A stretch of DNA of 63,008 bases, filler included, from Asterionella formosa (lineage: Eukaryota): assembly GCA_002256025.1 (NCBI GenBank). It is 20 parts of 20 records of this genome, joined end to end, with 100 filler letters (N's around TTAATTAATTAA, not from the genome) between each part and the next. Parts side by side here need not be neighbours in the genome. Positions count along the whole stretch, not along the records: positions 2,639 to 22,269 come from NKIB01003601.1; 19 more parts are not named here. One strand, given 5' to 3'. The position numbers and the translations under genes were made by a program. Under the pieces are notes generated by a model. It was not told where the DNA came from and ran no database searches. It worked only from the letters and a program-made list of their open reading frames with translations. Position 1 is the first letter of the stretch. Each line of letters begins with the position of its first letter. Positions 6,478 through 51,847 of this stretch are shown here, piece after piece.

Positions 6478-7224
6478 NNNNNNNNNNNNNNNNNNNNNNN
6501 NNNNNNNNNNNNNNNNNNNNNNNNNNNNNNNNNNNNNNNNNNNNNNNNNNNNNNNNNNNNNNNNNNNNNNNNNNNNNNNNNNNNNNNNNNNNNNNNNNNN
6601 NNNNNNNNNNNNNNNNNNNNNNNNNNNNNNNNNNNNNNNNNNNNNNNNNNNNNNNNNNNNNNNNNNNNNNNNNNNNNNNNNNNNNNNNNNNNNNNNNNNN
6701 NNNNNNNNNNNNNNNNNNNNNNNNNNNNNNNNNNNNNNNNNNNNNNNNNNNNNNNNNNNNNNNNNNNNNNNNNNNNNNNNNNNNNNNNNNNNNNNNNNNN
6801 NNNNNNNNNNNNNNNNNNNNNNNNNNNNNNNNNNNNNNNNNNNNNNNNNNNNNNNNNNNNNNNNNNNNNNNNNNNNNNNNNNNNNNNNNNNNNNNNNNNN
6901 NNNNNNNNNNNNNNNNNNNNNNNNNNNNNNNNNNNNNNNNNNNNNNNNNNNNNNNNNNNNNNNNNNNNNNNNNNNNNNNNNNNNNNNNNNNNNNNNNNNN
7001 NNNNNNNNNNNNNNNNNNNNNNNNNNNNNNNNNNNNNNNNNNNNNNNNNNNNNNNNNNNNNNNNNNNNNACAGAAATTGATACAATTGGAATGGCTGTGG
7101 CTTATATCACAATTTCAAAGCTTGGGCAAACTATCGTTGATTGTTTCTTCGGACAAAATTGCATTCATTTCACATCATATCAGCTTACACTGCCTTTGTC
7201 CACCGTTATTCACGATTTTTTCAT

Positions 7225-10478: not shown

Positions 10479-11229
10479 GATGTTTCTGCTCTCAATCTCT
10501 CGCTCGCACAACCTCTCTCGCTCTCGNNNNNNNNNNNNNNNNNNNNNNNNNNNNNNNNNNNNNNNNNNNNNNNNNNNNNNNNNNNNNNNNNNNNNNNNNN
10601 NNNNNNNNNNNNNNNNNNNNNNNNNNNNNNNNNNNNNNNNNNNNNNNNNNNNNNNNNNNNNNNNNNNNNNNNNNNNNNNNNNNNNNNNNNNNNNNNNNNN
10701 NNNNNNNNNNNNNNNNNNNNNNNNNNNNNNNNNNNNNNNNNNNNNNNNNNNNNNNNNNNNNNNNNNNNNNNNNNNNNNNNNNNNNNNNNNNNNNNNNNNN
10801 NNNNNNNNNNNNNNNNNNNNNNNNNNNNNNNNNNNNNNNNNNNNNNNNNNNNNNNNNNNNNNNNNNNNNNNNNNNNNNNNNNNNNNNNNNNNNNNNNNNN
10901 NNNNNNNNNNNNNNNNNNNNNNNNNNNNNNNNNNNNNNNNNNNNNNNNNNNNNNNNNNNNNNNNNNNNNNNNNNNNNNNNNNNNNNNNNNNNNNNNNNNN
11001 NNNNNNNNNNNNNNNNNNNNNNNNNNNNNNNNNNNNNNNNNNNNNNNNNNNNNNNNNNNNNNNNNNNNNNNNNNNNNNNNNNNNNNNNNNNNNNNNNNNN
11101 NNNNNNNNNNNNNNNNNNNNNNNNNNNNNNNNNNNNNNNNNNNNNNNNNNNNNNNNNNNNNNNNNNNNNNNNNCTTTTTTATTTTGCACAATTGCCAATA
11201 CCACTGACTCCTTCCATTGGCAAGCCATC

Positions 11230-11730: not shown

Positions 11731-12264
11731 AAAATCTTTCGGTTCATTATCCCAACAAGGAAGGAAAAGAAAAAACCATATAAATGAATGATAGCTTTCT
11801 TTCTTACCATCATGTGATGGACTTGATATAGCAAGGATGGTGATAGACTGGTGCTTCCAGACTAAATCAAGACTGCATTGTTGGACAAATCCTCAAAATG
11901 ACAGTGGGTTGCTTATTGTTGATCCACTCCCTCCCATAGTTATGTGGTGCATTCAAGTATTCATCCCTCACACAAATGAATATTTGAAACATGATCTATT
12001 GGTTCCTTCAGTACATCATTCAAAAATGGATGGCCAGAATGTTTACACATCATTCTCATGTTTCAACCAGGTTGTGCACACAGTATTGCAAATCTTGTAT
12101 GAATTGCAAATGAGTACCATCAATGTCATTTGTGGAACAACAAAGGGGAAAATTGCAAGGATAAACCGAAATGTCTTTCTTCTGACATTCAGCAAGTACT
12201 TATTATGCTGTTCCAGCCACTGCATGAATGGTTTGTTCTTTTTTAAACGAAAAAGCAAGCACCT

Positions 12265-13041
12265 TCAATCATCATCATACAACAATTCATATATGGCCTC
12301 ACGTTCTCTTTCTTTTCGTTCCATTTCGGAGCAGCGAATGGGAATAAGGTCAATTCGTTCTTGTAAATTCTTTTCCCAGAAATCCAACTGTTGTAGAGAA
12401 CTTTGTCTCTCCTCATTTCCTATAGACCTTCCATCAAACCGTTGCAATAATGGTAAACTTCCAAGGATATAATATCGATACCCTTCCCATTCCAATTCAC
12501 ATGGATTCCCCACCAAGTACAATTCTTTCAATCGTGGCAATGACTTAAGAAATGGCATGGATGCCTGCAATCCCATAATGTCAATAATATTAAAGGATGC
12601 ATCCAAGTATTCCAATGTGCTAATGTATCCCATCAATTCTTCCAACGAGTTCAAGTTATTGAGTGCCAATACCAATACTTGCAATGCCTTGAATCGTCTC
12701 CAATTCCTTCCATCCAAATCATCAATGATATTATTATGCAAGAGCAATCGTTGTACATTTGGACATGCTCGTCCTAGAACTGGACCAATTTTTTGTATTC
12801 CATCATTTTGTAAATCCAATTCAAGGACGGTATATAAGAATCCATGGTACGCATACGTATCAGTACTACTTGTGTCATTGTCATGAATAATGGTCGTACT
12901 GCAGCGTTGACGAATCAATTCCAATAAAATGGGGCGTTTGTGAATCGTCATGGATCCAAATCCCAAATCTTCCATTTCAGGTGGATTGCATAATTCCAAA
13001 GCACACATGATCCAACATAAAACAGTTTCTGTTAATGGCAT
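12265..13041 (-). CDS. LRRC6/DNAAF11 (tilB)-like protein, LRR plus LRRcap only (short paralogue)
   Basis: ILLELIRQR..LELDLQNDGIQKIG..ACPNVQRLLLHNN..LVLALNNL..LKELYLVGNPC..YRYYILGSLPLLQRFDG matches the LRRC6 N-terminal half. No CS domain follows. The true start may be 12951. Confidence 0.75.
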   Translation of the reverse strand: MPLTETVLCWIMCALELCNPPEMEDLGFGSMTIHKRPILLELIRQRCSTTIIHDNDTSSTDTYAYHGFLYTVLELDLQNDGIQKIGPVLGRACPNVQRLLLHNNIIDDLDGRNWRRFKALQVLVLALNNLNSLEELMGYISTLEYLDASFNIIDIMGLQASMPFLKSLPRLKELYLVGNPCELEWEGYRYYILGSLPLLQRFDGRSIGNEERQSSLQQLDFWEKNLQERIDLIPIRCSEMERKEREREAIYELLYDDD

Positions 13042-14565
13042 GATATTGGTGACATGTGTGGTAGTTGGTTGTGTGGTTGTATTGTTGTAGTTGTATCCTT
13101 CAACTCGCAAGGAGTATCTGTTTATATATATATATATATAAATATAAACATATACTATTCTTCACACTCTCCCGATAGTCTCTATACTTCTTATTTTGTT
13201 GCAGAATAGTACTGGTAGTCTAATTCAGATAAACGAGAGACGGAGGAGCAATCTTGTCATGTCTCATTTGGAGAGGAACGAACGCGATCCAACTTTAGTG
13301 TTGAACAAAATGTTCTGAAAATGTGGAGTCAAAGTACCTACCAGTNNNNNNNNNNNNNNNNNNNNNNNNNNNNNNNNNNNNNNNNNNNNNNNNNNNNNNN
13401 NNNNNNNNNNNNNNNNNNNNNNNNNNNNNNNNNNNNNNNNNNNNNNNNNNNNNNNNNNNNNNNNNNNNNNNNNNNNNNNNNNNNNNNNNNNNNNNNNNNN
13501 NNNNNNNNNNNNNNNNNNNNNNNNNNNNNNNNNNNNNNNNNNNNNNNNNNNNNNNNNNNNNNNNNNNNNNNNNNNNNNNNNNNNNNNNNNNNNNNNNNNN
13601 NNNNNNNNNNNNNNNNNNNNNNNNNNNNNNNNNNNNNNNNNNNNNNNNNNNNNNNNNNNNNNNNNNNNNNNNNNNNNNNNNNNNNNNNNNNNNNNNNNNN
13701 NNNNNNNNNNNNNNNNNNNNNNNNNNNNNNNNNNNNNNNNNNNNNNNNNNNNNNNNNNNNNNNNNNNNNNNNNNNNNNNNNNNNNNNNNNNNNNNNNNNN
13801 NNNNNNNNNNNNNNNNNNNNNNNNNNNNNNNNNNNNNNNNNNNNNNNNNNNNNNNNNNNNNNNNNNNNNNNNNNNNNNNNNNNNNNNNNNNNNNNNNNNN
13901 NNNNNNNNNNNNNNNNNNNNNNNNNNNNNNNNNNNNNNNNNNNNNNNNNNNNNNNNNNNNNNNNNNNNNNNNNNNNNNNNNNNNNNNNNNNNNNNNNNNN
14001 NNNNNNNNNNNNNNNNNNNNNNNNNNNNNNNNNNNNNNNNNNNNNNNNNNNNNNNNNNNNNNNNNNNNNNNNNNNNNNNNNNNNNNNNNNNNNNNNNNNN
14101 NNNNNNNNNNNNNNNNNNNNNNNNNNNNNNNNNNNNNNNNNNNNNNNNNNNNNNNNNNNNNNNNNNNNNNNNNNNNNNNNNNNNNNNNNNNNNNNNNNNN
14201 NNNNNNNNNNNNNNNNNNNNNNNNNNNNNNNNNNNNNNNNNNNTTTCCTAAATCAATGATTATTTTGGGAGTATAATGCATACCGGTAGTATTTAAGGAT
14301 ATGTGCCTATGTCATTTGATTACCGGTATACTCCAGTAGACTACTGTACTCTACGGAATATTTGTTTATCAATGTTATTGCTTGTTCTCATCGAACTCTC
14401 ACACCCATTCAATTTCATTAATGAGGTTCTGATTTGTTCATCGATGATATCCTTGTAGCCTTTAGACTACCGTATTGTCACAACGAACAGCAATTCCTTT
14501 CTCTGAATATTCTTAACGACGAATTCTGATTGAAAAACACAGCGCAGACTTTTTTCTCCCTCAAC

Positions 14566-16770
14566 ATGACGACGACGACAGCGCAAGAGGAAGCGCCGTC
14601 CTTTATTGCCAAATTAGAAGCTCGAGTGGCCGCCATTGACAGCTTGCTTTGTGTTGGTTTGGACCCACACTCGAGCGAGTTATTCCCAAATGGCTTGGAC
14701 GGAGTCTCGGAAGAATTTCACGCACAAGCAGCCTTTACCTTTTGTAAAACAATCATTGACGAGACCCGTACGTTTATTAGTAATACCGGTATATCTGAGG
14801 ACAGTACATTCCGGTAGTTGCTTTCAATTGTATTTGTTGCAGGCTCGTACACTCACACCCTCCCTCCCTTACACACACATTTAGTCCCATTCGCTGCCTG
14901 TTACAAACCAAACGCTGCCTTTTTTGAAGCCATTGGTCCGACTCATGGTATGGCCACATTGGCTCGTCTTTTGAAAACATGCATTCCAAACGATATTCCC
15001 ATTTTGTTGGATGTCAAGAGGGGGGATATTGGTACCACTGCCGAAGCCTACGCCACAGCCTGTTATGACCACCTGGGAGCGGATGCTGTCACCTTGTCAC
15101 CACTCATGGGATGGGACAGTATTAGTCCATTTGTAACAGAACAATATGCAACCAAGGGAGCATTCTTGTTGTGCAAAACTAGCAATCCAGGTAGCAATGA
15201 TTTGTTGGCATTGTCTTGTTGTGGCAGCAACAACAATAACAACATGACATTATACGAATGCATTGCTCAGCTGGCAAGCACTTGGAGTGCGAATCATCCA
15301 GAATCATGTTTGGGTCTAGTGGTGGGTGCCACTGATTCAGTGGCAATGGCACAAGCACGAAACATGGCTGGACAGTCCACATGGATCCTAGCGCCAGGAG
15401 TTGGAGCACAAGGAGGAAATTTGATGGAGGCATGTCGGGCAGGATTGAATGCTCAAGGGACAGGACTATTGATTCCAGTGTCGAGAGGGATTTCCAAGGC
15501 ATTGAACCCTGGAATGGCGGCCAAGGAATTAGTCCACATGATTCAACTGGCACGACGAGAGGTAATTAACAAACAAACTTCCAGGAGTGAATCCGACGAA
15601 CCCATGACGATGGCGAAGATACAAAACTACCAAAAAGAATTTATCGAATTTAGCCTTTCACAAGGAGTTTTGAAATTTGGATCGTTTGTTTTGAAGAGTG
15701 GAAGAACATCACCTTACTTTTTCAATGCAGGATTATTTGCGACGGGGGCATCTTTATTCCGGCTTGGAAAGGCATATGCCAGTGCCATTATGGCTAGTAC
15801 TGAATTGTAAGTTGTACTCCAATATTTTGCATGTGAAATCATGTACAGACTTGTATTTTTTGAGGTGGGGTATGAAGAGGTATTATGCTTGGTCCGTGTT
15901 GTTGATCCGCCCCCACGCGAGTGGCGCTGAAAAGAATCTATTCAAGCTTCTGACCCCCCACAAAGAACTGAAACTGCTTGAACCATTCCCCCTTCCCATA
16001 CGCACACACACGAAGAGAATGGTCAATGACGAATCATATAGGTCTTCTTTCTCCTTAGTTCCTTTTGGAGCCATGCCGGTCAAACTCCTAATCGCTGATT
16101 CGATACATATCTGAGACTTGATACACGTGTGTGTGTGGGTGGGTGGGTTCATAGAGGGCATGTTGATACAACACAAAAAGTGTTGTTGGTTCAAATCCTT
16201 TCTTTGGTTTGGATGTGTTTTATATATAACTTCGACTCACATGCTATCTGGTGTTTATAATCACTCATTTTTATTTCTTTTAGAGTCAAAGATGGCAAGG
16301 TCATATTTGATGTTGTATTCGGACCAGCATACAAGGGTATATCGATTGGTGCTGTTGTTTGTGCGGCATTATACCGTGACTTTGGTGTTGACACTTGCTT
16401 TGCATACAACCGGAAAGAAGCCAAGGATCATGGAGAGGGTGGTCAGTTGGTGGGTGCCTCCATGTATCAAAAACGTGTATTAGTTGTGGATGACGTCATA
16501 ACTGGAGGGACTGCCATTCGGGAATCATACGATATGCTAACATTAATTGGTGCTGTCCCCATGGGAGTGGTAATTGCATTGGACAGAGCTGAAAAACGTG
16601 CCTTGGACGACCCAATTTCTGCAGTTCAAGCAGTCGTGAGAGATATGAATATTCCTGTTATTTCAATTGTGAATATGCCACAATTGCAATTGTATTTAGA
16701 ACAAAGTCCTGATTTTGATGAGGATGTGCTGACTAGTGTTTCAGAATACCGAGCACAGTATGGGGTTTAA
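14566..16770 (+). CDS. UMPS: Bifunctional UMP synthase in inverse ODC-OPRT (pyrF-pyrE) order; exons 14566-14767, 14885-15806, 16284-16770
   Basis: ODC motifs [26 protein letters not shown] and [14 protein letters not shown] motifs [22 protein letters not shown] and [10 protein letters not shown]. Both GT-AG introns (14768-14884, 15807-16283) restore the frame. Confidence 0.95.
15866..15958 (+). ncRNA. Intronic box C/D snoRNA, U18/SNORD18-like
   Basis: Terminal GGGG/CCCC stem and box C ATGAAGA (15872). Guide CTTGGTCCGTGTT (15888-15900) is antisense to the conserved LSU rRNA AACACGGACCAAG. D' TTGA (15902), CCAC-GCGA-GTGG tetraloop hairpin, box D CTGA (15950). Confidence 0.8.
16021..16118 (+). 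ncRNA. Intronic box C/D snoRNA with two LSU-rRNA antisense elements
   Basis: GGTC/GACT terminal stem, box C ATGACGA (16026) and box D CTGA (16111). GGTCTTCTTTCTCC pairs with LSU GGGGAAAGAAGACC. CCGGTCAAACTCC pairs with LSU GGAGTTTGRCTGG, allowing G-U. Confidence 0.72.
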
Positions 16771-16901
16771 TGACACCCACTATACAGTGGGAGTTTAATG
16801 TATCATTCTGTTCCTTGCTTTCTCACTCTCTATTTACTTATATCTATGCTCTCTTTTATCGCTATAACTACTTATTTATAGGGTCATGCAATGGGGTTTC
16901 C

Positions 16902-18347
16902 TTAGTACATTGTAGGAGGTTCCTCGTCGTCGGAACATTCCTCTTGTGTACAATGATCATTTACTGCAAATGAGGTGGTTTTGTTCCAAGTGACTGTTGT
17001 CCGTACTTTGCTGGCTGATGGTTGAAGAGGTAATATCGACTGTGCTGATTGTCCAGTAGCATCTTGCGCCATCAATGCAGCTCCTGTTGATATTGCTTTT
17101 GCTGTTGCTGTATGGGCAAATGACAATAACTTTTGATTCTGAATCCTCGCAGTACTGTGAAAATCATTGTCATCAAGAATGACAATCTTTTCCCTAGTGG
17201 GGAGATTAAGTTCCAATTTACCAGTGGCTTGACTTCGATGTGCTTGAGCCTTCTCTTGACAAATCGTCTGTGGGAGCCTAACTCTCACAACTTGAGCTTG
17301 TACGACCAAACTAATATAATCCATTTTAATATCTAAATCCAAATCTTCTGTTGGTATTTCCTTTGGAATAGATATGACAAGAATGAGTCGATCCATATGG
17401 TAGTCAAGTGTCAATGGATAATTGGGTTCATTGACATTGCGTCGTTCTCCAAATGGTGGTTGTTCCAATGTTCTTGTTTCTTGAAGGACAGTACTATGCA
17501 ATCGTGGCGTGTTGTTTTTGTTGGACTCGTGTACAACGTTCGCTTGTTGACGATCCTTTTCGATACGTGCTTGTAGTGCCAACCATTCTTCGCTCATGGC
17601 ATGACGCTGTTTGGCAATCTTGAGAAATTGTTCATCTTGTTGTAGGTTGGTGGTTGTAGTAGTTGATGTAGTACTATTCCATTGCTCCTCGTCATAATTA
17701 CAATCATCATCATCATCATCGTCATCATCGCCATGGTACTGTTGCATGTCTTGAATAGCCTTGGTCCTCTCGTCAGCTTCAATAGTAATTCCATCCAAAC
17801 GTTTCAATTGTAGCAACGTAGCAATGACTAAGGATCGGTACTTGGTTCCACCAAGTTTATGTTGACAGGGATTGCCAGCAAGAAATAAATCATGCAATCG
17901 TGGCAATCCCTTGAGAGCATCCAATGATTCCAGCAATCCAAGTCTACTACTGGTATTACTGGTATGAATAGCAGTCGTTGTTCTGATATCAATAGCATTA
18001 AAGGATGCATCAATATATTCGAGTGCATCGTAGTGTTCCAAGGATCGAAGTGTAGTTAAATGATTGAGTGCCACTACCAGGACACGCATGGTACGTTTCC
18101 AACCTATTTTAGCAGTTGTACAAGTGGTATTCAATTCATCCAAATGAACAAGTAGATTGTTATGCAAATACAGGCGCTTCAGGTTTGGACATGTTTTCAT
18201 CACAACGGAACCGATTTCTTGTAAATGATCTTGATGGACATCTAAATCGGAGATATCTTTCAAGAGACACAAGTTGTCGTGGTCTTTGGTTCTCTTTCGA
18301 ATCAATTCCAATGTAATGAAACGTTTCGAGGTTGGTGTTGTTGACAT
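16902..18347 (-). CDS. DNAAF11: Full-length LRRC6/DNAAF11 (tilB)-like dynein assembly factor homologue
   Basis: N-terminal ITLELIRKR, LRRs and LRRcap (LFLAGNPC..YRSLVIATLLQLKRLDG). CS/p23-like domain RNVNEPNY..DLDLDIKMDYI..AHRSQATGKLELNLP and acidic C-terminal DEEPP. Confidence 0.85.
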   Translation of the reverse strand: MSTTPTSKRFITLELIRKRTKDHDNLCLLKDISDLDVHQDHLQEIGSVVMKTCPNLKRLYLHNNLLVHLDELNTTCTTAKIGWKRTMRVLVVALNHLTTLRSLEHYDALEYIDASFNAIDIRTTTAIHTSNTSSRLGLLESLDALKGLPRLHDLFLAGNPCQHKLGGTKYRSLVIATLLQLKRLDGITIEADERTKAIQDMQQYHGDDDDDDDDDCNYDEEQWNSTTSTTTTTNLQQDEQFLKIAKQRHAMSEEWLALQARIEKDRQQANVVHESNKNNTPRLHSTVLQETRTLEQPPFGERRNVNEPNYPLTLDYHMDRLILVISIPKEIPTEDLDLDIKMDYISLVVQAQVVRVRLPQTICQEKAQAHRSQATGKLELNLPTREKIVILDDNDFHSTARIQNQKLLSFAHTATAKAISTGAALMAQDATGQSAQSILPLQPSASKVRTTVTWNKTTSFAVNDHCTQEECSDDEEPPTMY

Positions 18348-18750
18348 TGTTTTATTTACAGTATCTTATTTTGTGAACGAATGATTCTATTATTTACGCT
18401 CACAGACTATCAGGGTGTTAGAATATGCTCATATATACATGTATTTTTCATAATCATCCGTAAAATTTACTTCATCCATCATTCATGATGGGGAGAGAAC
18501 ATCAAATAGTATATTATACCGGTATTAGTTTTGAAGACCACTTTTATTCCCACAGACCACAAATATCATTGTGAAATAGATTTTTTTTCCCTCTCATCAG
18601 ACATTGCTCCTTTCCAAAGTGCAGATAGCATCATAGATAATATATATCCTCATATAATATTAATGCATATGAAATCGCAAGATGGTCGGGTTGAACATTC
18701 TTCTTGTCCATGTATCACATTTCATTTCTCGGACATGAGTACTACCCAAT

Positions 18751-20139
18751 TTACAATTTTGGCCCGTCAGACTCATCCTGGTCTGAAGGGGAACGAAGCA
18801 TCCTGTGTCTCCTCCTGCAAACGCAGCTACTCTCTTTGGCGAACAACTTTTTGATCAATGCTTGCTTCTGAGTTGAGTTCATGAGGCCGGCAGCAACTTG
18901 CTTTCTGGAGCTAGCCCTCACACAGGCCTCATAAGTGTCATAATACGTCCAGCACTGATACTTGACAAGATGCTTGCAACCACATGCCCTGACAACATTC
19001 TGCTCAGCATTGCATCCTCTCACATCCACCTTGTTGGTGGAATTTTTCAATGTGCTGGCACACAAGTCCTTGAGATCACCAACACCATCGCCATCTAAAT
19101 CACATTCATTGACTACTATCTTGATATTGTCAAAGCCAGCAGACTCATCGGCAATGGGTTGATTCGTCAGCACCTGAAACGCCAAAGTCAGCTCGCCACT
19201 TAGAAAATATTTGCGTGGCAAAGTTATCGTAAAGTGATGAATCTGGTCAACAAAGGTTTTGGTCTTGTTTCCAAAGCACAACCGAGCCGATTCATTCGAC
19301 ACCACTTCCACACCATAATCGCTGGAATGATCTGGTATTCCTTCATACTTGTCTTCCCAATCAAAATTTCCTAAATCAATCACAAGATTATTAAGTTTCA
19401 ACTGAAGAGAGTCTGGGCCGATTTTCGTACCATCCGCTCGAACATGAAATGGGCCATCCCACGAGTCGATCTCGAAAAAATCAAAGGTTACATTTATGGT
19501 GGAGGCTCCAGTAGGAATGCCCGTGAATTTTCTGAATGGATCCGCATCCGCCTTTTCAAATCGTCCTAGAAAAATGTTGGGCAACGCGTTTTGGAGGGGT
19601 GTGCAACCTAAAGCAATTTTGGCGTTGTTCCATCCTGCAGCCTTGGCATTATTCGCAGCTACCACTGGGTTCGTATTGGCGTAGCTTTGAAAATCATCCT
19701 GAGCTAGAATTTTTCCAACTTGACATGTCGATACTGCTGTTTTTTTTGTAGTCAAGTGGTGTAAAAACGAAAAGTTAGAAAAAGCAGGGCAAAAATGGCG
19801 AAAGTTCGTCGCGTCAGCATATCATGCACCATGCTACAACAAAAATGAAATTTCATCATCGTTCATCATGATGGACTCAAGCTTATTCTGTAGATACGAC
19901 TAGAAATTGCGGAGGGTCCAGCACCACCTGCCTGGATGTGGTGCCCTCCTGCTGAAAGTAGCTTGTACATGGCTTTGACGTCATGTGAAAGTATAAAGTT
20001 ATGCCATTCTATTTCATTTCAGCCAATAAACAAATAATGGAAATTTATAAACACGCAAGGATTAGTTGCGATGCATACCTGATGTGGTGTCAACAATGAT
20101 CATCGCGGAGACAAGAAGACGAGCGAAGTGAAGATTCAT
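18751..20139 (-). CDS. Secreted protein with an FDFFEIDSWDG beta-domain and a thrombospondin type-3-like DxDGDG repeat; 5' exon structure uncertain
   Basis: 334-aa ORF 19755-18751 (FLGRF, FDFFEIDSWDG, DESAGFDN, CDLDGDGVGDLKDLC..VDVRGC). A likely signal-peptide exon MNLHFARLLVSAMIIVDTTS at 20139-20079 is followed by a GTATGC donor. Confidence 0.6.
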
Positions 20140-21973
20140 GGTGATTTTGTTAATGCAGTACAAATAGCACTTGTTTGTAAAGATTTTGAATTTATTTGAC
20201 TTGTTGAAATTATGAGCAAAACACAAACGACGCAACTTTTTTCAAGATTGTTGTTGTTACCCGTCATTGGAAGCAAGATTCACTAGAAGGGCTTCTCTCT
20301 TTCATCGAACAAGCTTGTTAGTATGACGCTTCCTCGCATATCAGTTTAGTGACACGACCATAATGGGTTCACAGTCGATTTCTCGTGTACAATGGCTGAT
20401 TCTAATGGTCGAGCAGGATTTTAGCCGTACTTTCTTCGTATCTAAACGCTTCCAAAATTTGAACGACATAAAGCATAGAAGAATAGCTCCAGTCAGTTTT
20501 GAATTCGTTCACAATGCCGTGACGATGTCTTCTCTATCGTTTGAATCGTCCAAATCGTAGAGCAGCCCTGCTTTCAAATGATCTTGAAAGTGAGGCCCGA
20601 CTTGTTTCTAAATTCACTGTGACGACGTTGATCGACAACAGCCTTGAGCTACTAGTAGCTACTATGGTACTAGAACTAGAATAGTAGAAACAAATAACAA
20701 TAAGCGATGATAAACCAAAGCATCGCGAGGACTATCACCCATCAGCAGTTATTGCTACTGACCAACATAATCGACACGAATCGTTTCAAGTTTATATTAT
20801 CAAATGGCATTGATGTTCTAACTTTTTCACTAATTATCGAACGGGCGTTTTCACAAGCCAGTTATGGTTATAGTAAATGACAACGCTATTGAACGATCTG
20901 AAAGTATTCTAGCGAACAGTGTTCCGAGGATAAAGCCTAATAAAGACTTGAAAGGCGTGTGACATGTCGATCGCAAAAAAAAACCGGTTTTTCATGCAGT
21001 TGTGAGTGATGCAGCTGAATTTGTGAAGGCGGTGCCAGAAATATTGTTTTTATCATGATGAACATTTAGTAAAATTAAAACGGTATGATCTGCGGAAAAT
21101 GAAAATCCACGACAGAAATAATGATATTCATATCATGTACACGTATGTGTATATCGGCATATACATACACATTAAACATATTTAGCTACCGGTACCGGCA
21201 TGTACCTGTATGTCTGTAAATTAGCCTGTCTACGGCACCTGGTGATTACGTAAACGCATGTGTGCTAACGACACTCATTTTGTATCATGACGGATTATAA
21301 TTTTTGGATTTTTGCCGCAGCTTGATGAAGTTGTGCCCCCCCCCCCTCTATTGAAGGAAATTGACTTTTTTGTTGCTCCTTCTTTCAACCGATTTCAGCA
21401 AAATGCATGTACTGGTGGGTGGGGGTGTATCTAAGGTTAAAGGAAAGTAACAAAAAGGTTTTCAAATTGAGCCTCAAAGAAAGACTGTTCAGCCTAATGA
21501 GCTGGCGGAAATAACCCGAGATGATGATGATGTAAAATAAATCGGTAGTAAGGCCGTTGCTTACCGTTGACCCAAACCAAAACCCAAAAACTTTTTTGGA
21601 TTGGTTTTGGTTTTGGTCAACTGACGAAAAATCGATGCTATCGGTTTTTGGGAAATCCTAAATGCTGTCAACCACCCATCTACTGTGACGTAGGATGACA
21701 AAACCATTATAAAAAAAGTAAAATATTTCTATTAGACTACTTTTATAAATGAAATATTATGATTCCTAATTGGGAATTAGTTAGTTTTTCCCGCAATTTG
21801 AGCAATGCTGCTGTCTTGTTATCAACAACTTTGATCCCATTGATTACATGATCAACGACATGCCTAGAAAAGAACACGGATTCTCTGTTGGAAGAGCAGC
21901 CATAATGGGATCGCAAGGACTTTGACAACGATGATATCAAAGATGAAGATGTGTCTTTTCAAATAGCTTTGAA

Positions 21974-22269
21974 ATGCCGCTTCATCCAGACAAACCATTG
22001 ATTCAAGATGCATTGGAGGATGTTCACCGCTGGAATATGGAAATGGATCATGAAAATGGAATTGGAGAAGACGATGAGTTGTCAGGAGACGAAAGGGAGT
22101 ACAGAGAGATGCTTGGCAAGGAAATTAAGTATGACTACGATCATGATCCGGAGTTCGAAGAGCAGTTTCGTGGCCATGTCGTTGTGGCTTGTACCGGTGA
22201 CGATTCCGATCTGGAGATCGCAGAAAAGATTACTCTAGCGCTGACAGGAAAGTTTGGGAAGCAAGTGTT
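21974..22269 (+). CDS. Hypothetical acidic protein fragment, cut by the scaffold end
   Basis: Coding-like open frame ..EFEEQFRGHVVVACTGDDSDLEIAEKITLALTGKFGKQV. The upstream part appears frameshifted. Confidence 0.4.
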
Positions 22270-23162
22270 NNNNNNNNNNNNNNNNNNNNNNNNNNNNNNN
22301 NNNNNNNNNNNNNTTAATTAATTAANNNNNNNNNNNNNNNNNNNNNNNNNNNNNNNNNNNNNNNNNNNNCCCCCACCCCCCCCCCCCCCCCCCCCCCGAT
22401 TCGGATTCCGGGAACTTTCCCTTCTTTTGACTCTGCATTATTTTTATAATACTGTCCCTTCTTTTGACTCTGCATTATTTTTATAATACTGTAACCACAT
22501 AATATATAAGGATATGGAGTTCATACAATATCAAAACTATTAGATATTATATTTATATATATATTTATTTATTTTTAAATATAAAATTGAACACGTGCGA
22601 GGCGGCGGAGAGCGAGCAAGCCAGAAGCAACGGTGGTGGACAAAGGCAAATCATGACGGGCAATTTGTTCGTGTTGTCAGTCATTCATGGATGGGTGGGT
22701 GTAAACATGGGTGGGGCAAAGCAAAGATGCACACTTCTTTTTTGTTTCTTCTTATATATATACAATACGGTATATGTAAGCATGTAGACATCATGCATAA
22801 AACTATGTATGGATACTAGAACCAGTAGTTATGTTCGACGTTTCCACCAAGGCACATGACTTGGATTCGTCGTCATTTAAATTTCTTTCTGAGTGGATAT
22901 GCACATCCATATAGTCCATCATAGGCCAAGCCCCATGATTGAAAAGGTGTTGGTTGCAACTGCCTCAAACCAAAAGCACAGCGATTTTTTGAAAAGTGCA
23001 ATGGATGGTACTTGGAGAAAGAAATTTCATTTCATCCTCACATAATCAAAGTACTGATACTTATTCTACTAGTCCATTCTTCTTGTATGTCATCATTTTT
23101 CTAACTACTTCTAATTTGCCAGTATCCATGATTGATTCATCTTCATTGACACTGTCTTGTTT

Positions 23163-23587
23163 TCACACATCTTTTTGTTCCACCCCTGCTTGTCGCAGGA
23201 ATCTCCACGTGACTTTAGCAGTCCCTCGATTGCTATCTGCTGGATGGAACGTACTTTCTGTTACTAATACCGTTCCATTTTGTTCTAAATATCGTTTGCT
23301 TTCAAAATCACCACCACCATATTTCGTAACTCCTCTTAGCCATGATCGATGAACAGTCCCATTGGTTTCCCACCATGCTGATGCTTGAACTTGTTCAGCA
23401 TCAGCAGTTGTAATAATGTTTGCAGTAACATTATTGCTGCTGCTGTTGCTGTCATTATTCACAACCAAGGATCGTTCCCAAACTCCTCGTGCATTGGTTC
23501 CTCGAATGAACAAGACTCGTCCATTGTCGCGTTGGTCGGTATGTTCAGTTGTCATACCAATAATCCCAAGGGCAATAGATCGTACCA
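23163..23587 (-). CDS. 3' part of a conserved hypothetical protein, possibly calycin/FABP-like
   Basis: RGTNARGVWERSL..AWWETNGTVHRSWLRG..GGGDFESKRYLE..LVTESTFHP, a beta-rich pattern. 5' end is truncated by the contig edge. Confidence 0.6.
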
Positions 23588-23903
23588 NNNNNNNNNNNNN
23601 NNNNNNNNNNNNNNNNNNNNNNNNNNNNNNNTTAATTAATTAANNNNNNNNNNNNNNNNNNNNNNNNNNNNNNNNNNNNNNNNNNNNTTAAGGTTCCTGC
23701 ATTTGAACCCCTAGCTCGAGGTAGGGTTAAAAAAATAATATTAAGTCAGAGTAGTCAAACATGGACTTCTTACGAGTAAAATGTAAATGTATATCGCTAA
23801 ACGGAGCTTTCACCAATACACACCCTTTCCACATGCTAAAATACAGTCATTTATCAAAGTAGGGGTATAGGTCAACGCTATATATCGTCAGGATATAGGA
23901 TCT

Positions 23904-24026
23904 GGCGAGAAACTGCAGAAAGGAACTTCGGTTTTTTAACTATGCTGAAAATAGTGGATTTTACCGGGCTAACTCGTTTATTTGGCCTAGTAAAAAAACC
24001 GAAGTTCCTTTCTGCAGTTTCTCGCC
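23904..24026. repeat. Perfect 34-bp internal inverted repeat (hairpin, 55-nt loop) in the Kolobok end
   Basis: GGCGAGAAACTGCAGAAAGGAACTTCGGTTTTTT (23904-23937) and its reverse complement (23993-24026). A diverged copy lies at about 40845-40966. Confidence 0.92.
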
Positions 24027-24412
24027 GAAAGTTAACTTCTGGGGCTATATGAAGATCACCTATGTACTTAACTCTTCTTCAAACCCTGCCAACGTTGAGC
24101 TATCGTCGTCCAAAAATTCGACGATATCGGCCTTTTCAACGGTCACCAAAACGTCGGAATCAGAATCACTAATCGCCGAAACGTCATCATCGGAATGGTA
24201 GTCTTGTGCTAAAATTTGTAGTCGTAAAATCTCGTGTACAAAAAGTTCCAATGTAATTGGCCGCTGTATTAATCATATTCTGATTGGTTATCCTTATAAC
24301 CGATCGATTGGCACGGTTTGCGAGGTCTTGCAATCCAACGCCGGCCACACTGGACACACATGAAGCATTTTCTTGGGTGTTGGCCGATCCTACCCGTATA
24401 CCGGTATCCGTA

Positions 24413-24518
24413 CGGAGTAGGAATACCGAGTACCGGGTAGACCTATGCGAAAACCATATCTGTCCGGAGTAGGAATACCGAGTACCGGGTAGAGTAGGAA
24501 TACCGAGTACCGGGTAGA
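24413..24518 (+). repeat. Three copies of GAGTAGGAATACCGAGTACCGGGTAGA inside Kolobok copy A
   Basis: Direct repeats visible at about 24414, 24467 and 24492. Confidence 0.8.
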
Positions 24519-25006
24519 TCTACCGGTACCAGGTACCTGATCATCATTGGTCATAGTACGAGGTAGTGCACGCTTACCAGTACGTTACTACCGTTAGTAT
24601 GCACATTCAAATAATTTTCGGAGCCGCCGGGTCTTGAATGTGAAACATATTTGTTGATACGAGTAGGTGTTACTATCGGTAGAAAAGCAATTTAAAACAT
24701 TCAGCGATGTAGAATCTATTTGTACATATTTAATGCATTTGAAATGGAATCTATACACGTACGCGCAAATTTCCACTCATTTGAATATTTCAAACTGAAT
24801 CATTGATATTCAAATTAGCACATGAAATTCTTAGTTCCAGGGAATTTCGGCAACCCTAAGCAATATTTTAATTTTTGCCTAGGGGTTCAAATGCAGGAAC
24901 CTTAANNNNNNNNNNNNNNNNNNNNNNNNNNNNNNNNNNNNNNNNNNNNTTAATTAATTAANNNNNNNNNNNNNNNNNNNNNNNNNNNNNNNNNNNNNNN
25001 NNNNNT

Positions 25007-26223
25007 ATTTCTTCAATCGATCAAACTTTATCTACGTATCTTCGAGGATCCAAGGAGCTGCGACAATTCGCAACTGCAGTGTGCAGGGATTTGCATTGCT
25101 TTCATGCCCCTGCGTTCATTGTAGCCAACCAAACTCTATCCAAATTGTCGAGTGTCCTTGCAGACTGTAGTTCGAGAGGTGAACTCAAGCTGACATTGCT
25201 TGGGGACTCAATTGGGGCCGGGTGTTGTGACCAAAGAGGTGGATTTGGGGCAGGCATTGTAAGCGGTCTGCAAAACTTGCTTGGACCGGATGTTGAATGT
25301 AAATTTAAAAACCGTTCACGAGGTGCGACCCAGACCGAGTACTTTCTTTACTGCGACTTTTCTGATGGTGATGAAGATATTATTATACTTGAATTTGTTC
25401 CTAGTGCTGATAAGGCGAATGTACTTTACCTTGAGGGTTTAGTTAGGAAGCTCTCACTGTTGAAGAGGTCACCCGTCATTATTCTGGTTGCTACTTCGTC
25501 CCCAGATCGCCACAACGACACATTCATTCTTGAGACTACCGAATTGTGGAGAGAAATTGCAAACAATTATTTTCTCCTTTTTCTTGACCTAACTGAAGCT
25601 ATCACTTATGGGTTGACTACATGTGTATCCGGTTCAATGGCAAAAACAAAATTCTACTCTGACTATGTACACCCAAATGAATATGGACATTTGTATGCCG
25701 CATGCCAAATTCTCGGAATCTTCGAAGCGGCTCTGAGATTTTCACCCATTGACAATCGCCACAATTATGTTCCTAAAGCGAAACCTGTAAGCAAGGAGGT
25801 TGAAATGATGGGCATCACTGAATGCTACAGTGTCCTTGAGGAAGACAGATCACGCTGGCCGCATGTTGTGGATGTGCACAATTTCCAAATTGTGGAACGA
25901 GCCCAAGCTGGTTCTACAAGCATTCATAAAAGGAGTTGGCAAGGCAACAAAACTGGTGACTCAATATCTTTCATTTTACCACCATTCATCTCCTTAAAAG
26001 TCAGTGTTTATGTAGGTCCTAGTGATGACTTCGGTGTTGCAAAGGTAAGCATTGGGACAAAACATGTTTCAATTCTTGATACAAGGAGACAGCCTGGAAG
26101 TAGACCATGGATTGAATCTCACAGAGGCTACATTAATGAGTTTCCAATTGTTAGGAGAAAGGATAATGTTACATATGATCATGAAGTTGTTTCCTTTGTG
26201 ATTCAAGTCAACTCAAGCAAGAA
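25007..26223 (+). CDS. SGNH/GDSL hydrolase-family protein (partial at both ends)
   Basis: Block I LGDSIGAG, block II RGAT, block III DIIILEF, block V DYVHPNEYGH. The frame is open across the whole contig. Confidence 0.85.
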
Positions 26224-26323
26224 NNNNNNNNNNNNNNNNNNNNNNNNNNNNNNNNNNNNNNNNNNNNTTAATTAATTAANNNNNNNNNNNNNNNNNNNNN
26301 NNNNNNNNNNNNNNNNNNNNNNN

Positions 26324-27541
26324 AGATGAATATGAGCAGCCAGGTTGAATGAAATGGTATTGTGATGCTCCACACCGTCCTCAAGATAATAGCAGTAGCC
26401 AGTAACATCGAAAGCAACATTCTCGTTCACGTTAAGGTAATTTGTACCATGCACAGATACGCACCGATAGAATGAGCGATGCACAGATGAATCACGGAAA
26501 TAGCAAGTTGGGCAGTTCCCGAGTATGTGAAAGTGCATGGGGTATCGACCAAGAACATTCGTCTGCCCCATCCTGTACAACTGTACACCTTCCACAAAGC
26601 CTGTACCATTGCTATGTACCATTACATGACCACCAAAGCCAGTCAGCTCAGTGTTGGGGCACGGCCGTGATTGATCATCATAAACCGTCCTGTCTGTAAG
26701 TGTACAGTTGAGAGGATCTGGGTCAGTGGGTTCTGAGTCGGTTGCTGAACCCTGAATCTTTATGGTTCGAGTTAGTAGGCCCACTTCGGCCTGATAACCA
26801 GAGTTGGCAACATGAATGTACTTTATGGTCTCATTCACATACACAGCTGCGCCGACTCCAGTAGCTGGATTTGCGACTACTCCTCGAACAGTAAGTACTT
26901 CATTTTGGTGCCATTCTCTGCTGTCCTTCATGGCAGTAGTAACAAGGATGATCTTCTGACCGGGTTCCCAGTTGACTTGATTCTGGACCATCATAACTCT
27001 GTCGCCAACAGCCACTGACTTGGCCAATCGAGTCCAAGTACGGAAATATCGCTTGCCGTGAAGGGAAATACTACCAGACACGGAAATGCCCTTGTAGGTC
27101 TTTTCTGGAATGACGGTGACAGCATTTGCAGGACGGGATCCATAAAGAGTGATTGTAACAGGCGTTTCAAGACGACACGTCTCCGATCCAGCCGTGAGCT
27201 TTCCTATGACGTCCATGCCACGGGTATCAAGGGTAATTCCTGTCGCGTTCTCGCCAAAGATGAGCTCAGAGGTCGCAGGGATGGTAATGATGCCAAAGAT
27301 ACCTACTACGGGCTTGCGAATGACAATTCTCTTGTTGGGTGGAAGCTGTAGGTTAGCAAAGTTGGTTGAAACCGGAACACCACTAGTTCCCCAGGTTGAT
27401 GCGACATGCCAGTCGAGAATACCAGTGTCAAGATGAGGACACAGCGTTCTACCTGAGACAACAGGATTTGCTGGATTGGGGATAGTGATTCTTGTAGAGG
27501 AAACAGTGATGAAAGGGCCTGCTGGAACAGGTCCAAAATTT
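26324..27541 (-). CDS. G8-domain/parallel beta-helix protein (fibrocystin/TMEM2/CEMIP-like), partial
   Basis: G8-like WHVASTWG..SELIFGE..GKLTAGSETCRL..ITLYG, then AEVGLLTRTIKIQG, FGGHVM, RMGQTNVLGRYPMHFH, RCVSVHGT and CYYLEDGVE. Confidence 0.88.
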
Positions 27542-28966
27542 NNNNNNNNNNNNNNNNNNNNNNNNNNNNNNNNNNNNNNNNNNNNTTAATTAATTAANNN
27601 NNNNNNNNNNNNNNNNNNNNNNNNNNNNNNNNNNNNNNNNNCGTACGAGGTACTAAAAACAACCATGCATGGTTTAAGCTATGCTTTAACGCTTACTTTG
27701 AACACGTTATAATATTATCTCTGTAGACTCGGTATTATCTTTACGAGACCTGAAATGATGAATTATATGGTTCACATATTCATTGATTTTACGTACTGTA
27801 TGCCCGATTTCGTCCTCACAAATATAGTTCTCATCTATCTTGCCTGCCTTTGCTCTATTCGGGTTTGCAATAGGCAACGTTCGTCTTTCTTTTATCCCAT
27901 CGTCTGCTGCTTGTTTTGCTAGTTGAAGCGGATCGGTGAGTACAACAGTGAAACACTGAATGTGGATTGTAGATCGTAGTTTTTGGGCCGACTTTCCGAT
28001 TTGATTGCTTCCATGGCTTGTTTTGATCGTTTCCATCGTTGTTTGTCGTTACGCACTGTCGTTTTGTTTCGATTGTACATATCTAAATAAGAACCAATGC
28101 ATTTATCAATGACTACTCATTGAAGATGTGGTATTGTGCCGTTGTTGATCATATTTGTTGATTGGTATAGTTGTTGGCAATGATGTCAAAATTGCCGCCA
28201 AGCAATGCTTTTCTCGTACTAACGCGCTTTGCTAATTTCTACTACGAGTTCGTATCACAAGCTACATAAATACTCAGCTAAAGAGTGTCGATAGTGCTGG
28301 AGCTGCGTGACGATCGCGCTCGCTCAGAATGGAATCATTAGGGTTGTTTGGCGGGAGGAAGAACGACTGTGGGCGGAAGGAGTGCAAGCAACTTGGTCAG
28401 GCTACTACAGCGATGTTCATAATGTTTGCAGCAACCAGATCATCTACGCTACATCACGATGCAGATTTCAATTGGGTTTAGCTTTTTTCTTCCTTTCTGT
28501 TTTGTTTCGCTCTTTGATGGTGTGATGGAAAGTCATTGGTGCCTGTGTAAGTGCTACAATGCATACGTTTACATTGAAACTCCTATTTTATACTTTATTT
28601 CTAACCCGAAACAATTTTTTCTATTTCTCATTTGACACTACTTATTACATCGTATTTCATCCTTTCATTGCTCCAAACATCACATTCAATTTTCATTGAT
28701 GTTGCATGTTACAATCATTCTCGTGTGTTTAACGCTTGTTGTACCCTTTTTATGTATTTTACCGTTATTCTGGCTGTCATCCTAAAATCGGCAATTTTCA
28801 TTCTGTCGAAAAAATTGATATGCCCCATATTGCCCCTAAAAATCAATTACTTAAGAGANNNNNNNNNNNNNNNNNNNNNNNNNNNNNNNNNNNNNNNNNN
28901 NNTTAATTAATTAANNNNNNNNNNNNNNNNNNNNNNNNNNNNNNNNNNNNNNNNNNNNGTTGTTGA

Positions 28967-29254
28967 TCATGGAAGATCGCCTGCTTGCTTGTAGTACCAC
29001 ATTGCCATTGTTTTTGTTTGTGCTAGTACTACTGTCCACTCAGCTGGCTGTTTGTTAAGCGATCTGATTGCATAAGAAACCTTTTTTGCAAGCGCCATGT
29101 GTGCATCTATTTTCCGATTCTCCAGCTCACTCTGCACTTCTTCCGCATGCCTCTTACTTTTCAGCTGGTCATCGACCACTTCAGGACCCAACAAGCACTG
29201 GCCTGCAGCGACATGAAGACCAGATGTTGCAATTGCCCTAAGCACCGTCTGCAA
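28967..29254 (-). mobile_element. Degenerate C-terminal fragment of a repeated transposon-like ORF
   Basis: EWTV..KTMAMWYYKQAGDLP is homologous to KLMVRWYKRSGDLP at 52253-52486 on another contig. Confidence 0.4.
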
Positions 29255-31204
29255 AAAATCATATTCCTATGATGCATCATAGGATTATGATCATCTGATC
29301 ATAATTTTTCGTTACATCATCTAATAATTTTGATAAATGCCCTCGTAATTTAAATAGTAACCCTTTTGACTATGTATATTTAATTATTATTTGTATTGTT
29401 TCTTTTAGGCTCCTTTATTTAAATTTCTTGCTAGGATAATATACCAGTTAAAGTAATGTGGTTTGGCTCATCATCATCGCCAGTCCTCACTCAGATTCTT
29501 GCAACAACAACAAAGCAGTCATGTCAAGAGGAACAAGTATTTGTGATAAAATCTTTAGTTATCGCTCAAGTCATCATATGTCTTCGATGAATCATCATCT
29601 GCATTGTACATTATGTTCGTATGCAATCCGTTAAGAGCTTGAAAAGAAATCCAATGAACACGAAATGGCTCATCACACAAGCAACTCGAATATTTCCGGT
29701 CTGTCAACAGAGCATCAATCAGTGTTACAACCTCAATCATAGCAAAATAGCATCCATTATTGAACAGCACAATCTACCTCTCCGTGATATCGTCTCTCTA
29801 ACAAGAATGTAATACATCTAGAATTGAAATGCAGCATAGCAGGCGATATTCACAAAGAAGCATGAGACTATCTATTTATAGTAACAGAGTGATTCTGGTT
29901 TCGTAATTTTCATGTCTCATCAGATTTCCTTTGTCATTGTACTAGTTCATTACCTTTGAAGACAGGAGCGTATTCTTTGTTGTATCTGGAATGTTTCAAT
30001 GGATGGCAGCAGTTGGATTTAGACACAAACATCGACAAGAGCACAAGTACTTTGTAGATGTTCATGAAAAGCCAGACACTTTGGCCTATCGACCACCAGT
30101 CAGTCTATACTGCAAAAATGCAAGAAGCACAAGTTGAATGCCCATTTATGGATTCAAGTTTCAGTAGTGCAACAANNNNNNNNNNNNNNNNNNNNNNNNN
30201 NNNNNNNNNNNNNNNNNNNTTAATTAATTAANNNNNNNNNNNNNNNNNNNNNNNNNNNNNNNNNNNNNNNNNNNNTATATGCCAATGGTACAGTTACTTT
30301 TCAACAAACTATGCATACTACGGAACGAATTAATATCCATTACATCAAACCTTTTCAAAGGTAAAAGGTTTTCCCTTGGTGTGGGAGAGTGAGCGATCTT
30401 GCGCATCAATACAGATGTATATAATGTTAGTGTTATATCATATATGTATCAGAACTCAATAATGAGAGAACTCGACTAACCCTCATTGTATACTTTGGTG
30501 TCGACTTAGAGAACGAGTTACACACAAGGATTAACAAATAAGCTCATATATTCAACAAATACTACTACTTCTAGTTAGATAATTCAACAGGTACTGGTAC
30601 CAGGTAGCCTGAACATGAATCCAGCCAGACTCACAGCCTTATTTTCCGATGTATCTATTGTTCTTACCGGTACTACCTGGTACCGGTAGTTGAAGGGCGG
30701 TAAATGGGTGGTCCTCATGGTAGACTCGTACCACACTGCAGACCGCGCCAGTATATAGTGTGTTCATTTTACTGTACTACGGTAGTCTGGTACATTCTAT
30801 TACCGGTAGTATGTCATATGAGCACAATCGTCTCCGCGCCCATTTTCAATTAATTAAATATTCTATGAGTATCATCCTGACAACACATAATTGAAAAATC
30901 GTCTCGTCGAAAGGAAAATTTACGATGACAAAGATGGCCTCTGTGTGGTAAGTTTAACGCAATCGTTCTTCTTTTCCGAGCTTCTTCTTCTCATACCCCT
31001 ACATAATTCATCTAAGCCGCGTATTACGTGAAGTGACCATCAAGTAAAAAAGCCTAGTTGATTTTGAATGGATCACATGAATTAGTTGAATACATCAAAA
31101 TGCTTACTTGAATATATCTATATATTATCTGAATACATCACTTTAATTGTTTGATCAGAGTAGCATGCATGCATTCCTGATCATCACTATATTACGTGAT
31201 CACC

Positions 31205-51173: not shown

Positions 51174-51273
51174 NNNNNNNNNNNNNNNNNNNNNNNNNNN
51201 NNNNNNNNNNNNNNNNNTTAATTAATTAANNNNNNNNNNNNNNNNNNNNNNNNNNNNNNNNNNNNNNNNNNNN

Positions 51274-51830: not shown

Positions 51831-51847
51831 CCCGGTACCACTTAAAA

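Follow-up and report, generated by a model that had tools for sequence, protein, structure and literature searches.

The 63,008-nt stretch of Asterionella formosa DNA analysed here (assembly GCA_002256025.1; hereafter the window, which joins 20 parts of 20 records) holds, in the part taken from record NKIB01003601.1, a box C/D small nucleolar RNA (snoRNA) of about 98 nt, which can be read from the sequence at 16021-16118 on the + strand, inside an intron of a UMP synthase gene. Its element 1 (16041-16054) is antisense to the large-subunit (LSU) rRNA at helix 73 and the peptidyl-transferase ring. The RNA is probably snR190-like in its mechanism and an orthologue of the snR190/snR107/SNORD12 group, and we put at roughly 0.5 the probability that it is the functional counterpart of these RNAs; that it acts as a base-pairing chaperone or placeholder, as snR190 does, seems to us about as probable. 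A pairing role, and not methylation of the base equivalent to yeast G2395, is most likely because the D' box is degenerate and out of register and a U faces the target G.

Architecture and conservation of the snoRNA

A C box near the 5' end, a D box near the 3' end and a terminal stem which closes the two give this RNA the general layout of a box C/D snoRNA. The stem joins GGUC (16021-16024) to GACU (16115-16118), which follows at once, directly outside the D box CUGA (16111-16114), and GGUC is succeeded by AAUGACGA, which holds the C box AUGACGA (16026-16032), its fifth base being C and not the U of the consensus RUGAUGA; the Rfam alignment to SNORD11 sets the same seven bases onto the C box of the model. 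Between the C-box segment and the D box the interior measures 78 nt. RNAfold additionally predicts an external stem of 17 bp between a CA-rich 5' arm (15995-16012) and a GU-rich 3' arm (16126-16143), in which 15995-99 and 16001-12 pair with 16126-37 and 16139-43, and the fold of the 151-nt stretch that includes this stem has z = -2.44.

Two contigs from related strains, X15 (record 2) and X18 (record 9), which are 92-95% identical to the window in the intron, were aligned on 15600-16500. Neither shows a change within 16021-16124 (0/104 in both), whereas outside this interval X15 carries 15 substitutions and three indels in 226 bases and X18 carries 12 substitutions and at least 10 indel events in 295 bases (Fisher p = 9e-4 and 1e-3, respectively, for inside versus outside), the two comparisons not being independent because many changes are common to both. 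The nearest changed positions are 16020 and 16125, and the conserved island therefore coincides with the snoRNA, whose selective conservation, as judged from these alignments, looks real. Variation reaches the flanking exons as well, with five substitutions in 180 nt and three in 217 nt (1.4-2.8%, as compared with about 8% in the flanking intron), and a further DNA contig, X16, is identical wherever it covers.

In the external stem, the related contigs have C changed to T at 16126, where G16012 is still paired, as G·U, and X15 has in addition G changed to A at 16012, giving A-U; this may be a hint of compensation, in a stem whose inner end is uncertain because X15 also has a deletion at 16010 and a C to G change at 16011. 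At the 5-8% divergence covered by these strains the whole snoRNA is invariant, and elements 1-3 (the latter two described below) are not singled out. The placing of a snoRNA at 16021-16118 in the first-pass annotation, which had been made from the sequence, is thus borne out by the C box, the D box, the terminal and external stems and the conservation.

Element 1 and its target

Pairing targets were taken from eukaryotic rDNA found within prokaryote assemblies (L001-L029 and L032), that is, from LSU fragments of other eukaryotes present there as contaminants (at least 29 loci) and not from the host's own rRNA, together with one complete rDNA unit of another eukaryote (L032; G001:C4:1-20000), which comprises the small-subunit (SSU) rRNA, 5.8S and an LSU with a group I intron and which was found by pattern search and then by Rfam. 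Target structure was read from the structure line of the Rfam LSU family.

Element 1, GGTCTTCTTTCTCC (RNA GGUCUUCUUUCUCC), is the equivalent of the antisense element ASE1 of snR107 or of box A of snR190 and occupies nt 21-34 of the roughly 98. Its target, GGGGAAAGAAGACC, was present in 29 of the 29 LSU fragments among the matches listed; the exact complement would be GGAGAAAGAAGACC, and the duplex consists of 13 Watson-Crick pairs and one G·U (at U16052), 14 contiguous base pairs with a computed energy of -23.5 kcal/mol, which makes it the strongest contiguous pairing of the snoRNA interior with the complete rDNA unit. The antisense relationship predicted at 16041-16054 in the first-pass annotation was therefore exact in position. 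In yeast numbering, fixed by C2392 and G2395, the pairs run from C16054:G2393 through G16041:C2406, and they cover seven bases at the 3' end of the helix-73 5' strand, all six bases of the single-stranded ring (GAAGAC) and the one base with which helix 74 starts. The motifs of element 1 and of element 2 each occur once in the window, where shuffles give expectations, with one mismatch allowed, of 0.01 and 0.02.

The register of this duplex is not that of a guide for the G2395 equivalent. This base, the third G of GGGG, faces U16052 as a G·U pair, where yeast and human have C in the snoRNA, and the D' register seen in the snR190 group, in which the fifth base lies opposite G2395, G2483 or G3878, is missing, U16052 standing in that place. 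No canonical D' box follows element 1, the next letters being TTAG; a D' box in register would need AGUU at 16057-60 to serve as such, and CUUA (16054-57), the D'-like candidate, would if used select an A three bases 3' of the G2395 equivalent. An antisense of at least 10 nt is thus present, abutted solely by the degenerate CUUA. Element 2 is followed by TAATCG and only then by CTGA, and the observation that neither element directly abuts a canonical CTGA, made when the locus was first read, holds for both.

Comparison with snR190, snR107 and SNORD12

In snR190, box A lies upstream of a divergent D' box, G2395 is unmethylated, and the RNA is documented as a non-methylating chaperone or placeholder which is released by Dbp7 (PMC8536666), in agreement with the chaperone role that the first-pass annotation attributed to it. 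An internal stem involves box A, a second element of 15 nt is directed to domain I, and the two elements are redundant for 60S production (PMC8536666); part of this second element had earlier been taken for extra pairing with UUGGCAG, which lies 9 nt from the guide duplex on its upstream side (PMC8536666, PMC3116282). Box A of snR190 (predicted target G2395) and HBII-99/SNORD12 (G3878) are drawn on the same rRNA stretch by van Nues et al. 2011 (PMC3116282), and the statement that snR190 and SNORD12 both pair with the first target region was likewise correct.

The present RNA resembles snR190 in having, after the C box, an element directed to the same LSU stretch (GCGGGGAAAGAAGA in yeast, GGGGAAAGAAGACC here), a divergent D' box (CCGA in snR190), an internal stem able to sequester part of that element, a second, non-guide antisense element, and no methylation expected at the G2395 equivalent. 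As regards the internal stem, GGAG (16067-16070, + strand) can pair with CUCC of element 1 (16051-54) or of element 2 (16085-88), while in the fold of the free RNA the GGAG region is instead found in a hairpin, GUUCC/GGAGC (16058-62 with 16067-71). The differences are that the snR190 duplex is shifted by 2 nt to the rRNA 5' side, with a C facing G2395 where there is a U here, that box B of snR190 addresses 25S domain I or UUGGCAG and not helix 75/helix 80 and the adjacent GAAUCAGC, and that snR190 is a co-transcript of U14 of about 190 nt with a long Npa1-binding stem-loop, whereas the RNA described here measures about 98 nt and sits in the intron of a protein gene. The intronic location agrees with that expected of the group; Rfam found no U14 in the window and the fungal synteny is absent. 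By-eye comparison with the alignment in the supplement of PMC3116282 also showed that UGCCGG, within the C'-like candidate AUGCCGG (16073-16079, + strand, without both A's), is similar to UGCCAG, the core of the second element conserved in snR190 and HBII-99, a weak likeness (6/7 match, p ~0.1).

snR107 is closer in format, being intronic, 107 nt long and provided with a 14-nt ASE1 at nt 19-32 (21-34 here) and a CxUA-type D' box, CCUA, and its ASE2, directed to 25S 333-343, is required for 60S biogenesis independently of methylation, as the second antisense element here might also be; it differs in methylating G2483, with a C' box UGACGA, in having ASE2 just upstream of the D box and in scaffolding Mmi1 and Mei2 (PMC11971394). 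SNORD12/12B/12C (HBII-99) is intronic too, with a guide on 28S GGGGAAAGAAG, the helix-73 5' strand and peptidyl-transferase ring to which element 1 is complementary, and with extra pairing 5' of the target; in contrast to the present RNA it is a canonical guide for Gm3878 (Gm, 2'-O-methylated G), its extra pairing being to UUGGC, 9 nt upstream, and its second element being small (PMC3116282, PMC11971394).

The available text of a paper on Ostreococcus tauri snoRNAs makes no mention of a snR190/SNORD12 equivalent (PMC7671301). To the extent of the literature searches made, in which no survey of diatom or stramenopile box C/D snoRNAs turned up, the plain annotation is new for stramenopiles, and the novelty of this RNA and of its pair of targets has the same scope.

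Two further candidate elements

Element 2, CCGGTCAAACTCC (RNA CCGGUCAAACUCC(U)), at 16076-16088/89 on the + strand, is a marginal antisense to LSU (G)GGAGUUUGRCUGG. Among the matches listed, 24 of the 29 fragments have the motif GGAGTTTG[AG]C[CT]GG at 177-413 nt past the first target, with R of GGAGUUUGRCUGG being G in 21 and A in three; among the five fragments lacking the motif, three end less than 205 nt past the first one, and L001 and L002 have at least 500 nt downstream with no exact match. Depending on the rRNA variant, the duplex has 13-14 contiguous pairs, one to three of them G·U (the 14th pair is U16089·G), at -22 to -24 kcal/mol, and with two mismatches it can be extended across the P-loop, GCC (16070-72) pairing with GGC.

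On the Rfam structure line, the target of element 2 consists of one G in an internal loop, GAGU, which makes up the final four pairs on the 3' strand of helix 75, the two junction U's, GRCU as the whole helix-80 5' strand, and P-loop bases 1 and 2. The first-pass description, which put this target just before the P-loop, is corrected accordingly. GAGU pairs with ACUC, 13 bases past the first target; both targets belong to the same helix junction and are 12 rRNA bases plus the helix 75-79 arm away from each other, a relationship noticed post hoc. The second paired base of the P-loop (GGGGC) is the equivalent of E. coli G2251 and yeast G2619, the latter methylated through snR67, of which SNORD31 is the equivalent. 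Element 2 resembles snR67 in addressing the P-loop region, where its 5'-most base, C16076, would pair with the G2251 equivalent, and differs from this guide for P-loop Gm2619, whose box is in register, in that it has no such box and would compete with such a guide, not replace it.

In a cofold with a 257-nt LSU fragment, element 2 forms the intermolecular helix of the minimum free energy structure; element 1 does not form there, because the fold of the fragment itself competes, and we take this cofold just as showing that the element 2 duplex is strong. Duplex folding of 16055-16110 (56 nt) against long rRNA windows gave unrealistically long gapped duplexes and was discarded in favour of contiguous-run and short-window tests.

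A third element, missing from the first-pass annotation, is added here as a new lead. This candidate, GCUGAUUC (16094-16101, + strand), is the exact complement of GAAUCAGC, which is located directly 5' of the element 1 target in the helix-73 5' strand. With the commonest flank it forms nine Watson-Crick pairs, including C16093 with the first G, which was matched by 15 of 5000 shuffles, and with the AAAAUCAGC variant it forms eight (92 of 5000). AATCAGC was found in 16 and ATCAGC in 18 of the 29 fragments among the matches listed, the Rfam consensus being aucaGc, and AGAAUCAGC is drawn directly 5' of GGGG in human and yeast in the figures available from PMC3116282. Element 3 has a CUGA within it (16095-98) and shares bases with what may be a split C' box, UGAU-UC-GA (16096-16103). 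If it is real, elements 3 and 1 would pair with 22 consecutive rRNA bases, while a 39-nt segment holding element 2 would loop out.

Alternative explanations

The reading of this RNA as a placeholder of the snR190 kind is weakened by several results. A search of the whole window with Rfam at the gathering score gave no match; for the locus at E up to 10, the only hits were SNORD11 (E 0.33; 19.4 bits, the gathering score being 55), which we rejected as a relative, and a long non-coding RNA fragment. As no model matches, the homology to snR190/SNORD12 is argued from target and layout, and the match to an Rfam single-guide family that had been named beforehand as contrary evidence was likewise not seen, no family reaching the threshold. 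Domain I, the second target of snR190 and snR107, shows no pairing of 9 bp or more with the snoRNA at LSU 300-420 of L032, the only one nearby being an 8-bp match, AAAGGGAA, at 414-421. Contigs from RNA libraries enter the snoRNA from the exon or intron side and stop at 16104-16205, with no defined ends and no levels, and their depth is unusable for the processed snoRNA because they stop in this way. Lastly, divergent D' boxes can be active (PMC3116282; CCUA of snR107, PMC11971394).

This last point leads to the possibility of an active methylation guide, in which CUUA (16054-57) together with a degenerate C' box would place fibrillarin on the element 1 duplex, with U16049, the fifth base upstream, selecting the middle A of GGGG-AAA-G in GGGGAAAG (yeast A2398), and with elements 2 and 3 making the guide duplex more stable through extra base-pairing, as in van Nues et al. 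2011. We know of no methylation at the A2398 equivalent in yeast or human, which speaks against it. The D' box of snR107, which does methylate, is CCUA, used with C' UGACGA (PMC11971394), and CUUA departs from CUGA no more than this D' box does; highly divergent C'/D' boxes direct methylation in yeast, extra pairing stimulates it up to five-fold, and both snR190 and HBII-99 have extra pairing 5' of the same target (PMC3116282). The SNORD11 alignment, at an E of only 0.33, moreover puts CCUUAG on the D' box of the model (CCUGAu). Set against this, CUUA has no G for the tandem G·A pairs, its first base would itself be paired to the rRNA, and none of the C' candidates (UGGAGCC at 16066-72, AUGCCGG at 16073-79 and UGAUUCGA at 16096-16103) is convincing. 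Element 3, abutting the guide target, fits the published pattern of extra base-pairing well; element 2 does not, its target being about 200 nt downstream in sequence, and adjacent in secondary structure, whereas in the published cases such pairing lies within a few to about 10 nt of the methylated site. On balance we regard an active guide as rather unlikely, though far from negligible, and the first-pass proposal of a chaperone rather than a methylation guide stands as regards the absent D' register and the U facing the target G, CUUA-directed methylation being the part of it that is left exposed. Guiding from the terminal D box was rejected: only 7-12 nt separate any C' candidate from that box, and the best pairing there, UUCGAUACAU with LSU 2287-96 (10 bp, two of them G·U), stops short of the box and looks like chance.

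A less demanding explanation, which we place only a little below even odds, is that element 1 is functional and element 2, perhaps also element 3, is a coincidence in a spacer conserved for other reasons, such as proteins, hairpins or remnants of C'/D' boxes. In dinucleotide shuffles of 16055-16110 against the full rDNA unit, a run of at least 11 Watson-Crick pairs was obtained in 19.7% and one of at least 12 in 5.2% of 1000 shuffles; a contiguous duplex energy of -22 or lower (observed, -22.2 kcal/mol) was reached by 40 of 1000 (p ~0.04), and a gapped short-window energy at or below the observed -29.7 by four of 96. Element 2 by itself is thus borderline, marginally above chance (p about 0.04 to 0.2), and the antisense claimed at 16076-16088, exact in position and with 13 bp to GGAGUUUGRCUGG, holds as a complementarity and is only marginally stronger than chance would give. 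The rRNA partner of element 3 varies across eukaryotes, GAATCAGC being present in only 12 of the 29 fragments among the matches listed; in the free-RNA fold element 3 pairs with CGAAUCA (16030-36) of the snoRNA itself, and it overlaps the box-like CUGA/UGAU, so that its complementarity to rRNA could be incidental. A pattern of element 1 with element 2 had 0 matches in 241 million metagenome records, and the invariance of the whole snoRNA in the related strains singles out none of these elements. Other results favour more than one functional element: no other remaining pairing of the interior with the full rDNA unit comes near element 2 (-22.2 kcal/mol, the next best being -16.5), the target of element 2 falls in the same helix junction as that of element 1 (a random match in a 5.4-kb rRNA set would fall within 250 nt on either side in about 9% of cases, a post hoc estimate), and element 3 abuts the element 1 target exactly. 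Taken together, we give roughly even odds that the rRNA contact of element 2 is real.

Two further explanations carry little weight. Element 2 might be a conventional guide, if the rRNA 5' of GGAG paired with UAAUCG (16089-94) and the internal CUGA (16095-98) served as D or D' box, selecting the base opposite A16090. This CUGA, which lies 6 nt from element 2, matches the box perfectly, and the rRNA 5' of GGAG does vary among eukaryotes, AAAUUG of L025 being able to form four of the six pairs. Among the matches listed, however, the two bases 5' of GGAG are GG in 20 of the 24 fragments that hold the motif (AG, GC or UG in the other four), giving a U·G pair and then an A/G mismatch at the would-be target; just 12 nt lie between the internal CUGA and the terminal D box, with no room for a C' box and a guide, and the bases that pair with the 5' end are those after 16111-14 and not those after the internal CUGA. 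Unless the host rRNA differs, element 2 is not a conventional guide because it is 6 nt away from CUGA and has a mismatch at the would-be target, and we consider this reading very improbable. Still less probable is a decaying or non-functional snoRNA-like relic in the intron, to which the off-consensus C box, the lack of a canonical C'/D' pair and the lack of an Rfam match would point; the two related contigs show no changes in 104 nt, as opposed to about 8% in the intron on either side and 1.4-2.8% in the exons next to it, and the bases forming the kink-turn and both stems are intact.

Possible mode of action

If the RNA is indeed a chaperone or placeholder, the intron would be spliced and the RNA trimmed to the ends protected in the small nucleolar ribonucleoprotein, after which the particle would bind the nascent LSU precursor rRNA via element 1. 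The 8 nt of element 3 may lengthen this pairing on the same rRNA strand, giving a split antisense to a 22-nt stretch, and element 2, carried in the 39-nt insert, may bind at the base of helix 75, along the helix-80 5' strand and on the first bases of the P-loop, a contact by which the L1-stalk arm (helix 75-79) would have its two ends tied to each other. A helicase would presumably be needed for release, as Dbp7 is for snR190.

The fullest version of this proposal is a three-point staple in domain V, with elements 3 and 1 on 22 bases (the whole helix-73 5' strand and the ring) and element 2 on helix 75, helix 80 and the P-loop; we offer it tentatively, and as the sum of its contacts it is doubtful. 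If it were true, one ribonucleoprotein would hold both boundaries of the helix 75-79 arm, formation of the domain V root helix and of the P-loop would be delayed and the P-loop Gm guide excluded until a helicase acts, and the geometry of the chaperone would be unlike the tether between domain I and domain V made by snR190. The bridging of two domain V strands suggested in the first-pass annotation finds support on the side of element 1 and is near to chance on that of element 2. Bridging as such is not new in kind, since two antisense elements are known from both snR190 and snR107; the novelty would lie in a second target within domain V (helix 75/helix 80), where the known RNAs use domain I, and in the third element.

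The only well-studied snoRNA placeholder on helix 73 is the fungal one (snR190/snR107). Were a counterpart from so distant an algal lineage to retain the helix-73 element after losing the methylation register, with secondary contacts of a different kind, this would indicate that the ancient, conserved job is the shielding of the strand and not its methylation; such an RNA would also be a variant provided by nature for finding out which of the second contacts can be exchanged.

Homologue searches and neighbouring features

A pattern combining the C box, element 1 and CTGA was found at 11 loci in the same 241 million metagenome records. All 11 were inspected by eye, two of them also with Pfam, and found to be bacterial genes or DNA resembling bacterial coding sequence, and none was accepted as a homologue. 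L034, L039 and L040 are one sequence; L036, identical to L038, is the end of an FtsH peptidase gene (Pfam), and its GCTGATTC is best read as coincidence. L037 was rejected as lying within an IS21-type transposase open reading frame (rve, Pfam), in spite of a 'terminal stem' of 10 bp: its - strand has by chance, at 501-567, a C box, the 14-nt motif of element 1 running straight into CUGA, one more CUGA and the said stem, and it is a warning that pattern matches alone can mimic a snoRNA.

The host intron (GT..AG, 477 nt, 15807-16283, + strand) is placed by flanking exons with Pfam domains and by one spliced contig. OMPdecase is found on 14818-15807 and Pribosyltran on 16285-16767 (Pfam), which identifies the host gene, on the strength of its domains, as UMP synthase in the decarboxylase-first order, an order that stramenopiles and a few further groups typically have. 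In one metatranscriptome contig 15806 is spliced to 16284 at GT..AG ends with the frame kept; this contig is weak support alone because its short side is just 30 nt, with 82% likeness at a permissive setting. Intron sequence is present in 20 public runs from 14 studies, namely lake, freshwater and 'algae' metagenomes or metatranscriptomes and one organism, which makes its owner a freshwater eukaryotic alga.

The exon pieces of the gene occupy 14818-15806 and 16284-16770 (+ strand), with further 5' exons probably at about 14530-14817. Downstream, on the opposite strand (16902-18365), there is an open frame of 487 aa with leucine-rich-repeat-like text and a poly-Asp run. In 1220-2638, 22270-30275 and 49857-61793, pairs of 44-N runs spaced by TTAATTAATTAA recur with a period of about 1317 nt, which looks like a linker put in during assembly to join many short pieces; N runs of greater length are found at 6478-7069, 10527-11173 and 13346-14243, and the snoRNA belongs to the uninterrupted piece 14244-22269.

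With regard to the contaminant rDNA, two or more rDNA repeats, spaced by 10.2 kb and having a group I intron in the LSU, are present on a contig of a metagenome-assembled genome labelled 'Bryobacteraceae', and short LSU fragments that share one identical flank occur in many isolate assemblies, probably as a common contaminant.

A scan of the window for other box C/D candidates returned two, both weak. The one at 58390-58513 (- strand) has a C box AUGACGA and complementarities of 13-14 bp to the LSU 5' and SSU 3' regions, and is located in a linker-riddled part. The other, at 12189-12275 (- strand), has UGAUGA repeats, CUGA and a 4-bp terminal stem, together with a 10-nt perfect complement, CCATTCATGC, to L032 LSU at about 2390, which is not beside a box.

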